From the NCBI RefSeq assembly GCF_044704955.1, contig NC_091984.1:147498001-147562000 (forward strand): 64,000 nucleotides of DNA, given 5' to 3'. A program made the translations under genes and the position numbers. The notes beneath the pieces were generated by a model, which did no database searches, was not told the origin of the DNA, and saw only the letters and a list, made by a program, of their open reading frames with translations. Source of the stretch: Pristiophorus japonicus (lineage: Eukaryota). Of the stretch, positions 1-12,470 are shown piece after piece (within the stretch, counting starts at the first letter, position 1; each line of letters begins with the position of its first letter).

Positions 1-3
1 CTG

Positions 4-10
4 AGGTAAG
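4..10 (+). promoter_or_regulatory. Candidate major splice donor of the ERV leader (AG|GTAAG)
   Basis: Consensus donor about 220 nt upstream of the gag ATG. A candidate env acceptor (ttctgtttcctgacAG) ends at 5031. Confidence 0.5.
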
Positions 11-224
11 GACTCCTCTTTATAAAAGTCCTCAGTCAAAAGTCTAAATTCGCCTCTCCTTCTTCGTGATTCCAAAAGCCTCTGGTTTGCGAACCCTCCA
101 GTTGGTAGTCGGTTCGAGGTCCCATCGACGTCTAAACTTCGGCGGTGTGTTAGTTAATTAATCACCGACCTATTGATCGGCTAGAAAGCCTACGACTCGA
201 GACTCCAGTAAAAAAATCAGTATT

Positions 225-1785
225 ATGGCAGCAGGAGATAAGAGCAAAGAATTGCCTACAACTGTTAAAGGTGGGCAAGCACCACCTGAGGTTTCGCTAG
301 ATGAAATTCTCGAACAGTTGAAAGAATACATAGAGCAACAATTCAATTTATCTAAAACCTATATTAAGATCGAACAAAAGTACGGAACCTCCAAAGGACA
401 ATGGTCCTTGGACGAGATTAAAAAGGTCTGGGGAAAAACGATCCGTGTGAAAAATAAAGAGCGAACTAGATGGTCCCTAGCCATTATGGGAACGATCCGA
501 AACTGGAATGAAATTATAATGCGTTCCCAACCTGATCGAGAACTGACCAGTACAAAGGATCAATTGCAAGCTGTTTGTGCACAGTTGCGACAGAAAAAGC
601 TTGAACTTGAAAAGCTGGAAGCGGAAGTTAAATATCTTAAAGGTGAAATTACAGAATGGAAAAAATCATTCGGTCAAGAGACAGTAATAGGAAAAGGAAA
701 ATGTATCGGTCAATTCCCAGGGTATCCATGTTTGGATAAATTAAAAGCGCAAACCCGAAGACACGACCGAGGAATAGATACGAATTCTGAATCCTCCGAC
801 GATACAGGGTCGGAGGATGAAGAATTAGGGGTGCGCTTTGCCCCATTTAAAAAAAGACGAGTTGTAGTCAAATCAGAAGAGACTGCGGATGAGGGCGGAA
901 CCAAAAAAACGAGGAAAAGGGTGTACGAAAAATACTTGGTTCATGATACGGCAGACCCAGAGAAAATTGATAAATGGTCCAAGGAATTGCCCAATCCAAA
1001 GAAAGGGGGAGTGAAAACGTGGGACCAATTGGACCGCTTAAGAAATATATATCAACTTCATCCCTGGGACGGAGTGCAAATTTTGACCATAATGGTGCCA
1101 AAAACACAGGGAAGAAAATTGCACGACAAGATAGAAGAAGCTTTGGGGCAGAATGAGCAAGAATTAGGCACAGGGTGGGAGGCGATTAAACACTGGCTGC
1201 AAGCCTTCAGTCCAGCTAAGACAGACTGGGGAAAATTGCAGCCTGCCAACAGAAAGGAACAGAGGAGGTCCTGGAGTATGACGAGCGGTTTAGATGCACA
1301 TGGCTAGAACATTCAGGTATGAATAATACGGATGAGGAAATGTATGAACAAGTGTTTGGACCCCTGAAAGCAGCTTTCGTGGCAGGTCTAAAGCCAGAAC
1401 TGTCCAAAATGCTTAAGGTAGTGTTACCGGACTGGGAAGGTAGAGGAACTACCTTTGCAGCATAGGTGGATCGATGTAACCAATTAGATCGGGATATGGG
1501 AGCTAAAGTCTGAGCTGTACAGGCTATGGGATGGAAATCCCAGAATTCCGATAAACAGTCATTAGGAAAATTACCCGGAAAATGTCATTATTGTGGGAAG
1601 GAAGGTCACTGGGCCAAGACGTGCAGGGCAAAACAGAAAGGTCGTGGCTGGGGAAGAGGACGCAGCCAGGGATACATTCAGCCAACAAGCCAGGCTTGTC
1701 ACAAGATAACGACCTCATAGAAGCATTTAAGCGACTGACAATACAACAACAGAAGGAGTTACTTGGGATAGCAAAAAACAATTAG
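225..1785 (+). pseudogene. gag: ERV gag, frameshifted (about 1240 and about 1680) with internal stops
   Basis: ORF 225-1307 (coiled coil, YPCL late-domain-like motif, capsid-like region), then CHYCGKEGHWAKTC zinc knuckle in ORF 1526-1720, then C-terminal tail ...ELLGIAKNN* ending at TAG 1783-1785. Confidence 0.88.
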
Positions 1786-4700
1786 AGCCCACCCTGGCCC
1801 CCCTCCTCGCACTGATACAACAGAGGGGAGATGGGCTATATATAACTGTGAGGGTGGGCGATAAGGATGTGGACTGTCTTTTAGACACAGGGGCGGAATT
1901 AACATGCTCACCCCTACAAAATGGAAACTTTTTGCCATTGGATGGTAGGGCATGTACAGCCTATGGAGTTGGAGGCCATAAAATGGAAATTAAAAGGACA
2001 ACACCGGTACTTATAGGGCTGGGTCCACATGAACTAACCACGCCGGTCTGGATAGGCCCAGTAGATCAACCCCTTTTGGGAATGGACGTTCTAATCCAAA
2101 TAGATTCATCGTTGCATTTTGAGGATGGTCGGGTGACATGGCCAATTAGAACTTTGAAGAAAGAAGAATTGAAGGAACACCCGATATGGGCTAAAGATAA
2201 GAACGATTGTGGCCTACTCCAGATGGAGCCTGCGCCATTTACCGGGACCAAGCCTCCATGCACTAAACAGTATCCCATCAGTCCAACTGCCATCGCGGGA
2301 ATCTTACCGGTTATTCAGCAATTGGAGAAACAAGGGGTGCTTATTAAAACGCATAGCTCCTCCAATAGCCCCGTGTGGCCGGTACAGAAATCTAATGAGA
2401 CTTGGCGTTTGACTGTCGATTATAGGAAAGCTAACCAGTGTATTGATCAAAAAGCTCCTTTGGTCGCAGATCCCGCCACCATTTTTAATGCCCTCAAACC
2501 GGAACATAAATATTTCTCGGTTATAGATATGGCCAACGGATTTTGGTCGGTGCCTCTGGCACCGGAGGTTCGACAGTGGTTTGCTTTCACGGTCCAAGGA
2601 CAACAGTATACTTGGACCCAGTTACCGCAGGGTTTCCACAACAGTCCTACGGTATTCCACATGGCTTTACAAAGCCATTTGCGAGAATTACCTCCCCTGT
2701 CATCCACAGTCATCCAATATGTGGACGATATCCTGCTAGCTTCAACCACGGAAGAACAGCATGAACAAGATTTACGAGCATTGCTGGACCACCTTCGGCT
2801 GAAAGGACAGAAAGCCAGCATCGACAAAGCACAAATATCCCAAGAAAAGGTTGTATACCTGGGACAAAAGATTTCACAAGGAAAGAGAGAACTTACCCAG
2901 GATAGAACTGCAGCCAATTGGGCTGCTAAAAAACCCACCACTATTCAGGAACTAAGGTCTTTTTTGGGATTGTGTAACTTTAACAGAAATTGGATTGACT
3001 CCTTCACACAGCTTGCTCAGCCATTGAATGATATTGTAAAGAGGAAACGTGCCTCTAAAGAAGCCATCACCCTCACTAAGGAACAACAAGAGGCCTTCCT
3101 GAGTTTGAAAAAGGCTTTGTGTTCGGCACCGGCTCTAGGAATCCCTGACAGTGGTAAGCCATTTATCCTGTTTGTCCATGACAAAGAAGGATATATGACA
3201 GCGAAACTGACACAAGCACATGAGGATCGGCAAAGACCTATTGGCTATTATTCGGCAAAACTGGATGCGGTAGCCCTTGGATGGGGAAGTTGCCTAAGGG
3301 CCATGGAAGCTACATGTCGAGCGGTAATGATCACTGCGGGTCTAGTCCTCGACCAAAAGCTGATTGTCAAGTGTCCCCACACCGTACACGCTTTGCTGTC
3401 TCTGAATAGAATGTCTCAGGTGACGGCAGCTAGATGGACCCGCTGGACAGCAGTTTTGGAAGCTCCAAATCTCCATATCGTCCGGGCCAGCCCGGTTAAT
3501 CCCGCAACTATGCTCCCGATGTCAGAATCGACGGAGCAAGAGCGGGGAGAATGTGAAGAGCATGACTGCGTGGAGATTTAAAAAGAAACAGAAGAAGCAG
3601 CCTTAGCAGCAGAGGAGCCTCTACACAACCCAGACCTCATCCTGTTTCCAGATGGTTCCTCCTTTGTTGACAATGGTACCAGAAAAGCAGGATGGGCAGT
3701 TACAACCTTATATGAGGTAGTGGCAAAAGGATGTTTACCCTCAGGAACGTCAGCACAACAGGCCGAGTTACGGGCTCTGTCAGAAGCATGTCGAATAGCA
3801 GAAGGACAGACAGCTAATGTCGACACAGATTCACGTTATGCTTTTGGAGTCGTTCACGACTTTGGTCAGTTATGGCGGAAAAGAGGATTCCTCACTGCTG
3901 CTGGTACACCTATCCGAAATGGAAAAGAAGTCCGAGACTTACTGGAGGCCATACAATTACCTCAGGAAGTGTCCATCCTGAAGTGTAAGGCCCATACAAA
4001 GGAAAATACCACAGAAGCTCAGGGAAATGCCCGAGCCGACCAGGCAGCTAAAGATGCTGCCTCACAGGGCGTTCCTCCAGAAGAACCAAAACAGATGTGC
4101 AGATTGAAAGCACTCAGGACTCTGACACGAGACATTCAAACAATGCAAGGCGAGTGCTCCCGAGAGGAAAAATGGACATGGATTGAGGCAGGAATTAAGC
4201 TATGTGAAGATGGTGTCTGGAGACAAAGAGTTACCGACAAGCCAGTTGCGCCACAAGCGCTTATGCCTTTTTTAGCCCAACAGATCCACTCGTGGGGACA
4301 CTTGGCCTCACAACAGATGACGGCACGGTTCCAGAAAAGCTGGTGGGGTCGGAGATTTAAAAAACATGCCCGGCTGGTAACAGACCGCTGTGTGGTCTGC
4401 CAGAAAAATAATTCTGGACCCATCACGGTAATGCCCCAACTGAGGCCTCCTGCCCCTGTCGGACCATTCCAGCATCTGCAGGTTGATTATATATCTCTTC
4501 CTTCATGCCAAGGATACACTAACATTCTTGTCATGGTCGACAGACTCTCTAGATGGGTAGAAGCTGTCCCAACTAAAAGAGCCACAGGCAATCACACTGC
4601 AAAGGTCTTGTGTAAGGATTACATTCCCCGATGGGGAGTCCCGAGTAGCATTGACTCAGATCAGGGAACACACTTCACAGGTGCTGTCTGCCAAGAAGTC

Positions 4701-5253
4701 TGTAGGTTACTGAACATTACATAGGATTTACACTGTCCTTATCATTCACAATCATCAGGACAAGTAGAACGAATGAATCAAACTCTGAAACAACAGCTTG
4801 CCAAATATCACCAAGAAGGAACACCATGGCCCCAGGCATTACCAATAGTGTAGCATTAGGGCAACCCCGAACAGAACTACAGGTCTAAGCCCATTTGAAA
4901 TTATAACAGGAAGAACCATGTCGCTGCCAGGAACTATCGATTTACGGAAAGCTGATGTTTACTTAATGAGTGACACTTTGTTATCATACTGTCAGAACTT
5001 AACCAATGCTATTAGTTCTGTTTCCTGACAGGTATCGACAGCTTGGGGTAATCCACCTGAAGGAGGACACGACATCATCCCGGGAGTCTGGGTGTATGTG
5101 AAAAAGTTGCATAAAGAACCTTTGGGTGTCAAGTGGGAGGGATCTTATCAAGTGTTATTGACCACCCAGGCAGCTGTTGAAGTCCAAGGAAAGAAAGCCT
5201 GGATCCACGCTTCACACGTTAAACGAGCACCCGTAACTGAATCTGAAATCTAA
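1773..5253 (+). pseudogene. pol: ERV pro-pol (protease, RT, RNase H, integrase) with stops at 3579, 4722 and 5026 and a frameshift near 4850
   Basis: DCLLDTGAE; LPQGFHNSP; QYVDDILL; TSAQQAEL and TDSRYAF (RNase H); HSWGH..CVVC, QVDY, SDQG (integrase); C-terminal KWEGSYQVLLTT..WIHASHVKRAP ending at TAA 5251-5253. Confidence 0.95.
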
Positions 5254-5277
5254 TAAGGACAATTACTTTTTGCCAAA

Positions 5278-6621
5278 ATATATAAATTTACTGTATTACT
5301 GATTGAAGGTATCCTAGGCATAGACCTACTTCTTACTAGCCGACCCTCTGCACCAAAGGGAAATAGTAGGGTAGCAAGGGAATTACATGTAAATACCTTT
5401 TTATATATGTCATACATTTATGCCAAACAAGGTAACATTTCTAGTTGTTGGGGTGTGCGCATATTCCTATTTACTCAAAGGGAGGGATTCCCTTGAGGCC
5501 AGTTCCTTGAATATCTCGGAAATGGCTGAGTGGATAATTAATCAAAACAAAACAGGCAATGCGTTTCAGGATCAGGAAAACTGGGCACGTAAATGGAAGT
5601 CAGCAGGTTACAATCTGACTACCTTTGAAGGGGGATACGAACCGTGCTACAATAATTCCAAACGGCCCCCATTTTTTGTTGTCACTAATACAACGGGAAT
5701 AGGAAGACCGGGGGAATCGGTCTGTCTGATTATAAACATGAAAGGAGGCCAAAATATGGGGTATAGTAACTGCTCCCGGAATTATAATATAATCAAGCCA
5801 CGGAACCGTCCAATCTGGGCCGATGTGGGAATTCTTAACCTAACGGGGATTCTGAATAAAACGGATGGAAAAGCGTGGACAGGCCCCGGAGTGTTGCTGA
5901 CAAAGAAACAGCTAACATTCATTGCCTATAATGGCACCTATTGGGTGTGTGGCCACAAGGCCTACCCTTGGCTGCCCCAGAATTGGACGGGATCCTGCTA
6001 TTTAGCCTACATTGTGCCTTATATGTATCATATAAAGTCACTGTCGGAACACGTCCTAAGAGAGCTATCACAGAAACAGAGAGGTTCTTTGCCATTCTGA
6101 TTCCCAGGTATGGGATCGCCAGACTGGCAAGAGAATCCATTAACATGGCATCCGTTGTGGAACGGGTAGCCAATGATACCTCAGAGGCCCGAGTTAAAAT
6201 CAATGCAGAAATGGTAGCAATCCGCACAATAGCCCTACAGAATAGACTGGCACTTGATTACATCCTGGCTGAAAAGGGAGGTACTTGCGCCCTACTCGGA
6301 ACTGAGTGTTGCACATATATCCCAGATAGCTCCGAACAAATTACCCACTTAACGGAGCATATCCAAAAGGAGGTAGAAAAACTTAAGCAACCCCCATCAT
6401 TCACTTTGTGGAGTGGAGCTACTGAATGGCTAGGTTCAATAGGAACTTCATTGGTGGAAGGTTTAATTCTATTTGTTGTAATTATTTTACTTTTATATTG
6501 TTTGTTTATGTTGATTAAATGTTGTTGCGACCAGGTGGCTGTAGCTGCTGTCCCGCAGGTGAGACACCTTGCAGGTCCCAGCAGACCATCTGTACATGGC
6601 ATAGAGGTATGTTATGCTTAA
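5278..6621 (+). pseudogene. env: ERV env, gamma-type, frameshifted near 5450 and 6040; no ATG at the expected start
   Basis: Disrupted CWVC motif near 5446, YWVCG..W.GSCYL in SU, RPKR furin site near 6052, immunosuppressive domain LQNRLALDYILAEKGGTC, CX6CC (CALLGTECC), TM anchor LILFVVIILLLYCLFMLI. Confidence 0.93.
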
Positions 6622-6866
6622 GGGAAGGTTGTTTACTGGTTGAATTAAGATATTGATTTGGATTAAATTGGAATAAGGTTAATTAACCTACTAAAACCAG
6701 ACTCCATTGTGGCCACGATGGAATTCGGGTTGGTGTAAATTTGTGTCGAAGCTACTAGTGGCGAAACACATCAACAAATTTTAGAAGGAGACTCTATTAA
6801 AATCTATGAAATTATTTTGTAGAATGTTGAACCAGTGATAGCTGATGTTTTATGATTCAGTTTGTG

Positions 6867-6881
6867 AAAGAATCAAAGGGG
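6867..6881 (+). promoter_or_regulatory. Polypurine tract
   Basis: AAAGAATCAAAGGGG directly before the TG that starts the LTR. Confidence 0.75.
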
Positions 6882-7245
6882 TGATGAATCGAGAATTCAA
6901 ACAGGCTGCATTTAGACAGGCTGTGAAAATTCACAGACACCAATCAGAGATGCGACGTGAGTGGGAGCATGTTGCATTAAGTCATCAATCAACTTGACAT
7001 TTTAGGACTTTGGGTAGCGAGCCAATTGAAAGGTTGAAAGGCTATTAATTGAGCCAATAAGGTCAAAGAAGGCGAGTTCATCTCTGTAAATTGATCCAGG
7101 TATAAGTACAGCCATTTTGACCATGTGATATCAGAAGGACAAAGACCTGGCTTAAAGCCAAGAGCTTCTGACTGCTGCCAAAAATAAAGTGACATTAAAA
7201 CTACAATCGGAGTTCGCATTTCATTGGAAATTAAGAGATCTAACA
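6882..7245 (+). mobile_element. ERV 3' LTR (about 364 bp)
   Basis: TGATGAATC...GATCTAACA imperfect inverted ends, TATAAG at 7101, AATAAA at 7183-7188. Confidence 0.8.
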
Positions 7246-7931
7246 ATATTCCAGGTGAGGCCTCACTAAGGCCCTGTACAGCTGCAGGAAGACCTCCCTG
7301 CTTCGATATTCAAATCCCCTTGCTATGAAGGCCAACATACCATTTGCCTTCTTTACTACCTGCGTGCCCACTTTCAGTGACTAATGAACCATGGCACCCA
7401 GGTCTCGTTGCACCTCCCCTTTTTCTAGTTTGCCGCCATTCAGATAATATTCTGCCTTCGTGTTTTTGCCCCCAAAATGGATAACCTCACATTTATCCAC
7501 ATTATACTGCATCTACCATGCATTTGCCCACTCATCTAACCTGTCCAAGTCACCCTGCTGCCTCTTACAGTCCTCCTCACAGCTCACAATGCCACCCAGT
7601 TTAGTGTCATCCGCAAACTTGGACATATTACACTCAATTCCTTCATCTAAATCATTAATGTACATTGTAAAGAGCTGGAGTCCCAGCACTGAGCCCTGCG
7701 GCACTCCACTAGTCACTGCCTGCCATTCTGAAAAGGACCCGTTTATCCCGACTCTCTGCTTTCTGTCTGCCAACCAGTTCGCTATTCACATCAGTATATT
7801 ACCCCCAATACCATGTGCTTTGATTTTGCACACCAATCTCTTGTGCGGGACCTTGTCAAAAGACTTTTGAAAGTCCAAATACACCACATCCACTGGTTCT
7901 CCCTTCTCCACTCTGCTAGTTACATCCTCAA
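7246..7931 (-). mobile_element. CR1 LINE fragment (host of the ERV insertion)
   Basis: RT motifs GVPQGSVLG and KFADDTKL on the minus strand. Confidence 0.9.
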
Positions 7932-8595: not shown

Positions 8596-8714
8596 CTCAG
8601 TTGTACAAACCACTATTAAAAAAAGGAACTGCGGTTCTTCTCAAGGGCAATTAGGGATGGACAATAAATGCTGCCTTACTGGTGACACCCACATCCCAGG
8701 AACTAATAAAACAA

Positions 8715-10135
8715 ATTAAAGGGACAGTGGCAGCATGGATACGAAATTGGCTAAGGGACAAGAAACGGAGAGTAGTGGTGAACGGTTGTTTTTCGGACTG
8801 GAGGAAGGTATACAGTGGTGTTCCCCAGGGGTCAGTACTGGGACCACTGCTTTTCTTGGTGAATTTCAATGATTTGGATGTGAGTACACAGGGCACAATT
8901 TAAAAATTTTCAGATGAAACAAAACTTGGAAGTACAGGTTGTACCTCCCTTATCGAGAATTCCCTTATCCGGAATCACTCCTCGACCAGAACCATTTCCG
9001 GCCACTCCGACGTGAACAAATTGAAGAAATGAAAGTCCTTCCTCACTGCCGACTCTCACAATCGCTGGCCTGACCCCGTGATCCACCGCCTCTCCTAATG
9101 ATCTCTCTACCACTCTCCCAGCCCCAAGCCAGCCAGCCCCGATAACCCCTTGCTCAGTACCTGTACCATCCAATTTAACATGACCATCCCTCGTCTGGAA
9201 AAATCCCTTATCCAGAACAGGCCAGGTCCCGAGGGTTCCGGATAATGGAGGTTTAATCTGTACAGTGATCAATGAGGAGGATGCTGATAGGCTTCAAAAC
9301 ATAGACAGGTTGGTGGAATGGGCGTAGACGTGGCAGATGAAATTTAACGCAAAAAAGTGTAAAGTGATACATTTCAGCAGAAAGAATGATGAGAGGAAAT
9401 ATAAACTAAAGATTACAATCATAAAGGGGGTAGCATGAACATAGAGACCTGGGGGTATATGTGCACAAATCGTTGTAGGTGGCAGGGCAGGTTGACAAAA
9501 CGATTTCAAGAAAGCATACGGGATCCTGGGCTTCATAAATAGAGGCATAGAGTACAAAAGCGTGGAAATTATGATGAACCTGTATATAACACTGGTTTGG
9601 CCTCAACTGGAGTATTGTGTCCAAGGAGGTGAAAGCCTTGGAGAGGGTGCAGAGGGGATTTACAGGAATGGTTCCAGGGATGAGGGACTTCAGTTACGTG
9701 GATAGACTGGAGAAGCTGAAGTTGTTCTCCTTGGAGCAGAGAAGGTTGAGAGGACATTTGCTGGAGGTGTTCAAAATCATGAGGGGTCTGGATAGAGTAG
9801 ATAGAGAGAAACTGTTCCCATTGGCTGAATGGTCGAGAACCAGAGGACACAGATTTAAGGTTTTTGGCAGAAGAACCAAAGGCGACATGAGGGAAAACTT
9901 TTTTACGCAGCGATTTTTACGCAACGTGGTTAGGATCTGCAATGCGCTGCCTGAAAGGGTGGTGGAGACAGACTCAATCGTGGCTTTCAAAAGGGAATTG
10001 GATAAGTACCTGAAAGTAAACAATTTGCAGGGCTACGGGGAAGGGGGAGTGGGACTTGCTGAAGTGCTCTTGCAGAGAGCTGGCACATGCTTGATGGGCC
10101 AAATGGCCTCCTCCTGTGCTGCAACCATTCTATGA
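8715..10135 (+). mobile_element. CR1 LINE 3' fragment
   Basis: [22 protein letters not shown].., RTRGH, FFTQR; 3' UTR ending ttctatg. Confidence 0.9.
8935..9260. mobile_element. Tc1/mariner (pogo/Tigger-like) MITE inside CR1
   Basis: Imperfect TIRs CAGGTTGTACCTCCCTTATC / GATAATGGAGGTTTAATCTG with TA on both sides (8933-8934, 9261-9262). Confidence 0.75.
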
Positions 10136-10139
10136 TTCA

Positions 10140-10968
10140 GTGAGTTGCGAATGGAACTGAACACTGTGCAGTCATCAGTGAACATCCCCACTTCTGACCT
10201 TATGGTGGAGGGAAGGTCATTGGTGAAGCAGCTGAAGATGGTTGGGCCTAGGACACTGCCCTGAGGAACTCCTGCAGTGATGTCCTGGGGCTAAGATGAT
10301 TGACCTCCAACAACTACCACCATCTTCCTTTGTGCTCGGTATGACTCCAGCCAGCGGAGAGTTTTCCCCCTGATTCTCAATGACTTCAGGTTTAATGGGC
10401 CCCTTGATCCCACACTCGGTCAAATGCTGGCTTGATGTCAAGGGCAGTCACTCTCACCTCACCTCTGGAATTCAGCTCTTTTGTCCATGCTTAGACCAAT
10501 GCTGTAATGAGTTCTGGGGCCAAGTGGTCGTCGCAGAACCCAAACTGAGCATCTGTGAGCAGGTTATTAGTGAGTAAGTGCCGTTTGATAGCACTGTTGA
10601 TGACAACTTCCTGCACTTTGCTGATGATTGGGAGTAGACTGATGGGGCGGTAATTGGCCGGATTGGATTTGTCCTGCTTTTTGTGGACAGGACATACCTG
10701 GGCAGTTTTACACATTGTCGGATAGATGTCAGTGTTGTAGCTGTACTGGAACAGCTTGGCTAGAGGTGCGGATAGTTCTGGAGCACAAGATTTTAGCATG
10801 ACAGCCAGGATGTTGCCGGGGCCCATAGCCTTTGCTGTATCCAGTGTGCTCAGCCATTTCTTGATATCACGTGGAGTGAATTGAATTGGCTGAAGACTGG
10901 CTTCTGAGATGGTGGGAACATCAGGAGGAGGCCAATATGGATCATCCACTCGGCACTTCTGCCTGAAT
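10140..10968 (-). mobile_element. Older LINE RT fragment (CR1/L2 group)
   Basis: KAMGP..ELSAPL..KSNPANYRPISLL..QFGF. Confidence 0.8.
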
Positions 10969-12470
10969 GCTAGGAGAGACATTAAAAAGCAGCACCTCAA
11001 AGGTAATAATCCCCGGATTACTCCCGGAGGCACCTGCTAGTGATTACAGAAACAGGAGGATAGAGAAGGTGAATGCGTGTCTGGAGAGATGGTGCAGGAG
11101 GAAGGGCTTTAGATTCCTGACGCATTGGGACCATTTCTGTTGGACCTGTACAAACTGGACGGGTTGCACCTCAACAGAGCCGGGACCAATATCCTCGCGG
11201 GGGGGGATTTGCTCTTGCAGTTGGGGAGGGTTTAAACTAGCTTGGAAGGGGGTTGGGAACCGGAGAATAGATTCAGTGGGGAGAGAAGTAAAGCTGAAAT
11301 TGGGCAGCAGAGAAGTAGAAAGTGTATTTGGAAGACAGAGTAAACAAGGGCTGGAAAATAGACAACAGGCAGTTTGGCAGTGCTAAATGGTATTTACTTC
11401 AATGCAAGGAGTATAGGGAATAAGGCTGAGATGAGCTGAGAGCACAGGTAGACACTTGGGAGTACGATATTATAGCTGTTACTGAGACATGGCTGAAAGG
11501 AGGGCAGGTATAGCAGCTCAACATTCCTGGTTACAGGGTTTTCAGACGGGATAGAGAGAGGGATAAAAAAGGAGGGGGTCACAGTATTAATTAAAGAAAC
11601 AATTGCAGCTGTGAGAAGGGATGATATGTGAGAGGGGTCATCAAACGAGGCCATATGGGTTGAATAGAAGAACAAAAAAAGGGGCGATCACACTACTGGG
11701 ACTGTACTGTAGACCCCCAAACAATCGGAGGGAGATAGAAGAACAAATATTTGGGCAAATTGCTGCGAAGTGCAAAAACTATAGAGCTGTAATAGTGGGG
11801 AATTTCAACGACCCGAATATTAACTGGGAAAAAAGTAGTGTGAATGGTGCAGAAATTGCTAAAATGCATTCCGGAGAATTTCTTTAGCCAGTATGTAACA
11901 AGTGTACCAGATGGCGGGCGGTCGAGGGGGTCGTTCAGCCCGAATGCCTGCCTCTTTTCTGCGGGTACATTCGAGCCACGGTGTCCCTGGAGATGGAGCA
12001 CGCGGTGTCCACCGATATGCTCGCAGCCTTCCGCGAGAGGTGGGCACCAGAGGGACTGGAGTGTGTCATCACCCCCAGCAACCAAGTTTTAATTTGATCC
12101 TTTAAATGTCAAAAGTTTAATTTGTTTAATGTGTCGGTTTGAGTGCACCTTTAAGAATGGGGCACTTTATTCATCGTTTCATCAAAAAGTTGTAACAAGT
12201 CCAACAAGGGAGGGGGCGGTTCTGGACTTGGTTTTGGGGAGTGAAGAGGGGCAGGTGGAAAGGGTATCAGTGGGAGAGCATTTTGATGCCAGTGATCATA
12301 AATCAGTTAGATTTAGTGAAGTTATGGAAAAGGACAAAGGTGGACCTGGAATAAAAGTTTTCAATTGGGGAAAAGCCAATTTTGCTGAGCTGAGATGGGA
12401 TTTGGCCAAAGTGGACTGGAAACGGCTACTTGATGGTAAATCAGTGTCAGAGCAGTGGGAGGCGTTCGCG
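10969..12470 (+). mobile_element. CR1 LINE: end of ORF1 esterase plus endonuclease
   Basis: ERWCRRKGFRFL.HWD; TLLGLYCRPPN; VLDLVLG; NWGKANF. Confidence 0.85.
11904..12190 (+). mobile_element. Tx1-like LINE 3' end with a 10-bp target-site duplication
   Basis: TGTAACAAGT at 11894-11903 and 12191-12200; internal frame ..GYIRATVSLEMEHAVSTDMLAAFRERWAPEGLEC resembles a Tx1 ORF2 C-terminus. Confidence 0.7.

Follow-up and report, generated by a model that had tools for sequence, protein, structure and literature searches.

A 64,000-nucleotide stretch of the Pristiophorus japonicus genome (contig NC_091984.1, positions 147,498,001 to 147,562,000; hereafter the window) carries a 7.6-kb endogenous retrovirus (ERV) whose lineage very probably, at a rough probability of 0.85, makes its Gag-Pol protein by programmed -1 ribosomal frameshifting on the slippery heptamer A_AAA_AAC, with a hairpin downstream as the predicted stimulator. 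In the mechanism proposed, most ribosomes would stop at a TAG at 1783 and release Gag, and a backward slip of one base, involving tRNA-Lys and tRNA-Asn, would carry a few per cent on into protease, reverse transcriptase (RT) and RNase H as well as integrase. The mechanism would be old in a fish-only clade (shark, gar and teleosts), where one position at the end of Gag would be taken by three different heptamers and where a switch to in-frame UGA read-through would have occurred in one sub-lineage or more. Frameshifting had been suggested for this element in an earlier note on its sequence; that reading is supported here and appears to apply more widely than the note supposed, bony-fish relatives carrying a matching signature.

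The gag/pol junction

The junction, and the two genes that meet at it, are laid out in the window as follows.

1773..1779, + strand: slippery heptamer A_AAA_AAC in gag phase (sequence; AAAAAAC in 63 of 72 distinct copies)
1780..1786, + strand: 7-nt spacer containing the gag stop codon, 1783-1785 (sequence)
1787..1859, + strand: predicted stimulatory hairpin (folding prediction)
225..1785, + strand: gag, with a coiled-coil N-terminal part, capsid and one zinc knuckle (1583-1624), ending at TAG 1783-1785 (zf-CCHC; homology to fish ERV Gag)
1731..5253, + strand: pro-pol in the -1 frame, with protease (DTGA at 1884), RT (YVDD at 2718), tether, RNase H and integrase

The heptamer AAAAAAC is phased with gag as X_XXY_YYZ, and the pol frame, offset by -1 from the frame of the TAG, has no stop from 1731 through the protease. 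In the window copy its first AUG lies 84 codons in, 3' of the protease active site. What is expected of a programmed -1 signal is present: a phased heptamer, and a downstream gene in the -1 frame that is open across the site and has no start of its own. The positions given in the earlier note for the heptamer, the TAG, both 9-nt arms of the proposed stem and the open pol frame are all correct, as is the -1 offset.

The window copy itself is dead. Breaks near 1231 and 1675 and a stop at 1511-1513 disrupt its gag, and pro-pol is interrupted by stops at 3579, 4722 and beyond. Because of the damage to gag, the placing of its end at TAG 1783 was, from the window alone, an assumption; here the frame that leads to the TAG is discontinuous with the knuckle. 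The claim holds for the family, the knuckle frame running to TAG 1783 in 23 of the first 30 sister loci; three have the window's own break and four have private changes.

Frameshift-stimulating structures typically start about 5-9 nt downstream of the slippery site, and the predicted hairpin begins 7 nt 3' of the heptamer. Folding of the junction region (1765-1870) gave a hairpin stable beyond chance (-39.6 kcal/mol, z -3.19; none of 200 shuffles was as stable). The 80-nt segment at 1787 has the lowest energy of the 3585 across the element (-38.5 kcal/mol vs -34.0 for the best one elsewhere), and among the element's 22 slippery-type heptamers the 1773 site has the strongest downstream fold. 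The predicted structure has a 9-bp outer stem, formed by the arms GCCCACCCT at 1787-1795 and AGGGTGGGC at 1851-1859, and a 13-nt 3' bulge. Pair probability is 1.0 for eight of the nine outer pairs, and all nine are predicted in 59 of 71 copies, with 7-8 pairs in the remaining 12. Within this stem the ensemble favours 1796-1800/1833-1837 and 1803-1808/1825-1830; the inner pairing CCCCTC/GAGGGG and the alternative AGCCCA/TGGGCT, both suggested earlier, have pair probabilities below 0.2 and are not retained.

The folding method takes no account of pseudoknots, and the hairpin is a prediction from secondary structure. Frameshifting could be real but driven by another stimulator: the stop close by might suffice, or a pseudoknot might form with the 13-nt bulge or with bases further away. 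Such a reading departs from the explanation adopted here in the stimulator only, and is considered unlikely, though by no means negligible: G- and C-runs permit alternative pairings and no covariation is available, but the outer-stem pair probabilities are near 1.0 and the hairpin lies at the right distance from the heptamer.

Sister copies in the Pristiophorus genome

The family is large (2558 candidate loci at first look, 40 of them scored), and its copies are about 96% identical to the window. For a survey of the junction, 77 loci were examined and five duplicates dropped, leaving 72 distinct copies. Alignment of genomic copies had been put forward in the earlier note as its own refutation, an extra nucleotide after the TAG being the decisive finding; this was not borne out, and 70 of the 72 copies keep the -1 phase, with the length from heptamer to protease Asp unchanged. 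The two exceptions, +1 and -8, are each private. AAAAAAT, which is still X_XXY_YYZ, replaces AAAAAAC in six copies, the heptamer is otherwise changed in three, and no length variant of the A-run occurs among the 72. In public DNA, the variants listed at a 2% share for run X1 (1161 contigs) included no one-base insertion at the junction; together with runs X7 and X8 (102 contigs), the listing for this run gave two minor 2-nt deletions only and again no one-base insertion. A gap-free contig over 1733-2099 was present in run X5, from another organism. Among RNA runs, none was listed as carrying the sequence.

Pol was under purifying selection while the family diversified with this junction, because shared variants are depleted in replacements and private ones are neutral. 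Pol variants private to one copy comprise 447 replacement or stop changes vs 141 silent, as expected without selection, and non-CpG variants present in at least five copies comprise 7 replacement vs 12 silent (Fisher p 4e-4; all classes p 2e-6).

When the genome was searched with proteins for sister families at greater divergence, only the window family came back. A motif-pattern search gave 33 matches, of which 30 were examined; they are mostly old, broken elements of other lineages, 25-47% identical in most aligned stretches and with a junction phase that cannot be read. One of them, L064, belongs to the window family and has lost 8 nt at its junction, a change private to it. An unusual protease context, LIDTGS, and long knuckle-to-protease spacers were also observed in old broken ERV families (L060, L062, L063, L069, L071, L074 and L082).

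Relatives in other fishes

Homologs of the Pol protein, at 46-61% identity, were found in carp, Astyanax, Coilia, Alosa, cod and gar, with partial shark matches in Pristiophorus (90-93%) and Heterodontus (71-72%). A Gag profile built from the natural gag frame of one sister copy and from the gag of L032, a metagenome contig described below, matched 335 proteins, the best 150 of the 335 being listed. Gags having a knuckle and a 25-160 residue tail were scored for a G-N, K-N or L-N pair lying no more than one residue from the stop. Among the matches listed, this signature was present in 12 of the 20 closest Gags vs 8.4% expected (p 8e-9) and in 2 of 50 more distant ones (close vs distant, Fisher p 8e-7); a stricter count, made by lineage and with one doubtful hit treated as a miss, gave 8 of 16 lineages (p 2e-5). 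None of 10 in-frame reference Gags has it. Most pairs among the 12 signature-bearing Gags are 21-38% identical, and their ends align with the terminal helix of the window Gag, which is homologous to them and shares that helix. Besides A_AAA_AAC, the relatives are best read, from their peptide ends, as having G_GGA_AAC or U_UUA_AAC.

Further evidence comes from proteins that cross the site. The Gag P0308 ends QEKN-stop, and the fused protein P0161, 84% identical to it, reads GKKL into pol and is 90% identical to the Pol P0009; by enumeration, the two readings fit one DNA solely in the -1 phase with AAAAAAY. Pol-frame translations open across the site were also found in the Heterodontus gene model P0099 (GVTWCSKKL) and in Astyanax P0006 (FFKL; also the unspliced call P0215), both with the site 35-38 residues before the protease Asp, matching the window. 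Conservation over evolutionary distance is thus seen in the peptide ends and in one forced dual reading, and the frameshift signal is probably old and shared by shark and bony-fish members.

The two of the 50 more distant Gags that have the signature are P0370 (end QGNF) and P0389 (end REGN), which are sisters (99 by the Shimodaira-Hasegawa-like approximate likelihood-ratio test, SH-aLRT) outside the main clade, and are possibly a second lineage with a G_GGA_AAC-type frameshift.

A relative with gag and pol in one frame

L032 is a single low-coverage contig of 2034 nt with adapter sequence at its end, having a homologous gag and 48% Pol identity. Its gag is in frame with pol, with GAT TGA CTA G between them, and no slippery heptamer and no notable downstream fold (z -0.64) was found at its junction. 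UGA-CUA is described as an alphavirus read-through motif in part of PMC13517186. In the RT tree L032 nests in the fish clade (100/99 with P0003, P0005 and P0007), and in the Gag tree, a quick tree, it sits among heptamer-ended Gags (96 SH-aLRT); its sister Gag, P0276, is also without the signature. The L032 branch has likely, though not demonstrably, switched to in-frame UGA read-through, L032 being this one contig. The trees fit one gain of frameshifting with reversals as well as they fit several gains. P0320, inside the L032 group, ends GKNT, either by chance or through a further change.

Three other Gags, P0275, P0277 and P0280, form a supported sub-lineage within the clade and have ends without the heptamer signature; they may represent a second read-through branch.

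Weighing the explanations

A number of observations weigh against frameshifting and are considered together. The surveyed copies were chosen as best matches, which biases them towards intact ones. The z score of the hairpin (-4.07) is not unique, lower values occurring in 3 of 165 other sampled segments; the stem shows no compensatory changes, in copies only about 4% apart and with mostly private differences; the Heterodontus peptide would imply at least one outer-stem mismatch if the pairing were identical; and an Rfam scan gave two chance-level hits and no match. For the relatives, the E-value threshold separating close from distant Gags was chosen after the list was seen, 8 of the 20 close Gags are without the signature (some visibly truncated or fused, others forming sub-lineages), and the heptamers are deduced from peptide ends rather than read from DNA. 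The DNA of a frameshift-type relative outside the family was not found in the viral contigs, metagenomes and prokaryote genomes searched: the first returned only a record of the length of snakehead retrovirus (SnRV), the second L032 as the one relative, and the third none.

Very unlikely is an origin of the -1 phase in a crippling founder indel, copied thousands of times with Pol from another element, to which heptamer and hairpin would be incidental. Private frame breaks do occur in the window copy, and L032, the nearest relative with DNA, is in frame; sections of Jern et al. (2005; PMC1224870) report that 17% of gamma-like ERVs have a -1 phase where gag meets pro, and stress post-integration indels. 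A founder of that kind is nevertheless difficult to reconcile with purifying selection on the shared pol variants, with the recurrence of the signature in Gags as little alike as those described above, and with a genome protein search using a 72%-identical relative, in which only the window family was found among 150 scored.

It is more improbable still that pol is expressed from a spliced mRNA or its own start, foamy-virus style, with no need of recoding. A separate pol start is described for foamy viruses in part of PMC8278194, and a pyrimidine run with the window CAG at 1820-1823 resembles a 3' splice site, but the G at 1823 is missing in many copies, the pol frame of the window has no AUG before the protease active site, and the GN, KN and LN Gag ends would be left unexplained. 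Hardly credible is polymerase slippage on the A-run, adding a base to some transcripts and so fusing gag to pol: the shark and one teleost family do have a run of six A, but other relatives are best read as having ribosomal shift sites that are not homopolymers, the hairpin at 7 nt suits a ribosome, and the A-run has a constant length in the 72 copies. Programmed -1 frameshifting is therefore retained as the best explanation.

Placement of the lineage

For the RT trees, 26 of 85 rows (short, broken or redundant) were dropped first and a partial L032 row was added; the careful tree has 44 rows and 293 columns. It included neither a lentivirus nor the SnRV-like ERVs published from fish, for example CmiERV lineage I. 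The names of the reference viruses are those we take them to bear, SnRV alone being independently supported, by its TAG GGC context. An RT tree had been called for in the earlier note, which labelled the element class I. In the tree the window falls in a fish-only clade of 11 rows (100/99). Gamma, epsilon-like and class II rows, 23 in all, form the group (100/99) that is its sister (97/91), and the SnRV, foamy and ERV3-like rows branch outside both. In this tree the clade is not sister to SnRV (clade with class I/II, 97/91), but SnRV is a long branch, and class II nests inside class I, perhaps by long-branch pull. Constraining the fish clade with class I, without class II, cost 17.8 log-likelihood units and was not rejected by the approximately unbiased test (p-AU 0.113), so a basal class I position is compatible with these data. 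RT identity is 25-30% to class II (alpha, beta, delta and lenti), with which the RT does not group, and 35-39% to the references SnRV, salmon swim bladder sarcoma-associated virus (SSSV), zebrafish ERV (ZFERV), walleye dermal sarcoma virus (WDSV), Ovex1 and XtERV-S.

Other characters are mixed. Target-site duplications at 11 insertions were best at 5 bp in seven (four exact) and exact at 4 bp in two, with one tie and one neither. Table 1 of PMC4299795 gives 4 bp as typical of ERV1 and 5 bp of ERV3/ERV4, and other sections of that paper (Chong et al.) describe ERV3/ERV4 as having no zinc knuckle and no GPY/F motif, and leave ERVs near Ovex1 and SnRV, some with knuckle and GPY/F, unclassified. 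The element has a knuckle at 1583, unlike ERV3/ERV4, yet its 5-bp duplication agrees with them. It shares with class I the gamma-type env, 1-2 zinc knuckles and a GPY/F-like motif (read as WEGSY in the window and as WEGPF or WEGPY among relatives), and differs from it in the duplication length and in that its pol, beyond the stop, is out of frame with gag. Of the class I label, then, the clearly gamma-type env stands; in the best tree the RT lies outside gamma, epsilon and class II, and 5-bp duplications prevail in 7 of 11. [quoted passage not shown] Separately, one long terminal repeat (LTR) family has both exact 4-bp (L204, L208) and exact 5-bp duplications (L212, L227, L247).

The provirus and its surroundings

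The provirus comprises gag, pro-pol, env and a 3' LTR, and the window begins directly 3' of its 5' LTR (L192). The two LTRs of the window copy are identical at 344 of 363 bases. The remaining features are:

5254..6621, + strand: env, gamma-type (TLV_coat), broken, with an immunosuppressive-domain motif at 6235 and CX6CC at about 6286-6312
6886..7245, + strand: 3' LTR, about 360 nt

Window 1-7300, with its breaks and 3' flank, recurs in about 10 places on C8 and C1231 (L002, L003, L193-L201, L217 and L221), which is a segmental duplication and not a set of independent insertions. L034, L038 and L046 (G000:C3567:301550-335340) are clustered, rearranged copies in which pro-pol follows env-LTR or an integrase piece and most of gag is missing; they are apparently a tandem array with a spacing of about 5.4 kb. 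The primer-binding site (L192; also L231 and L234) presumably resembles the 3' end of tRNA-Ser(CGA), but 4 of 21 genomic matches examined are not tRNA genes; the same site occurs in other ERV families of the genome (L223-L226). Flanking the provirus, at 7440-7920, 8650-8935 and 9300-11040, are fragments of reverse-transcriptase frames of a long interspersed nuclear element, which we take to be CR1/L2-like.

Significance and comparison with known systems

The mode of pol expression is treated as a genus-level trait in sections of PMC13517186, PMC1224870 and PMC3835772, with read-through in gamma, epsilon and unclassified fish retroviruses and frameshifting in class II. A fish ERV clade outside class II that has a conserved -1 signal and a nested in-frame relative breaks this rule. 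Frameshifting is itself well known, and what is new is its place in the tree and the apparent switching. Chances seem about even that the full picture holds: a fish-wide clade, sister to all gamma, epsilon and class II retroviruses, in which -1 frameshifting arose or persisted independently of class II, three heptamers have replaced one another at a single site, and recoding has changed between frameshifting and stop-codon read-through. If true, the way Gag-Pol is recoded is not fixed at genus level, and frameshifting may be older than the split of class I and class II. The clade also offers closely related natural pairs for asking how retroviruses change their recoding strategy. No description of frameshifting in fish ERVs was found in a full-text literature search, outside whose scope lay Repbase, Basta et al. 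2009, subscription journals and supplements, where fish ERV tables could bear on novelty.

The junction resembles class II cassettes in that an X_XXY_YYZ heptamer phased with gag is followed by a short spacer and a 3' structure, and in that one shift leads into pro-pol. The gag-pro junctions of mouse mammary tumour virus and human T-cell leukaemia virus use the same A_AAA_AAC. Alpharetroviruses and lentiviruses are described with a single gag/pol shift in part of PMC3835772. The element is unlike class II in that its RT is not class II, it has one zinc knuckle, a gamma-type env and pro and pol in one frame, and its predicted stimulator is a bulged hairpin.

Taken together, the relevant portions of PMC8278194, PMC13517186, PMC8672886, PMC5009743, PMC6001957, PMC1224870, PMC4299795, PMC2717909, PMC3835772, PMC4977317, PMC8922424 and PMC4422223 describe read-through for gamma, epsilon, SnRV, SSSV, ZFERV, Ovex1 and XtERV-S and frameshifting for class II. 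With SnRV, SSSV, ZFERV, WDSV, Ovex1 and XtERV-S the element shares fish hosts or a similar simple layout, and with SnRV the single knuckle; unlike it, all of these are described as having pol continue the gag frame after UAG or UGA (sections of PMC13517186, PMC2717909 and PMC8278194), and the SnRV-length record indeed has TAG GGC in frame. The gamma-type env recalls XtERV-S, a class III element whose env is class I but whose pol is not, according to part of PMC8278194. Three gamma-type records (L094, L098 and L099) have other knuckle-protease phases despite an intact TAG GG context, so that single records can carry indels. The nearest systems are the fish ERV proteins that share the RT clade (100/99), from carp, Pimephales, Astyanax, Coilia, Alosa, cod, gar, Pristiophorus and Heterodontus (P0001-P0012, P0122, P0186, P0099 and P0264); these differ from the window in that the type of heptamer varies among them and the L032/P0005 sub-lineage is in frame behind UGA-CUA.

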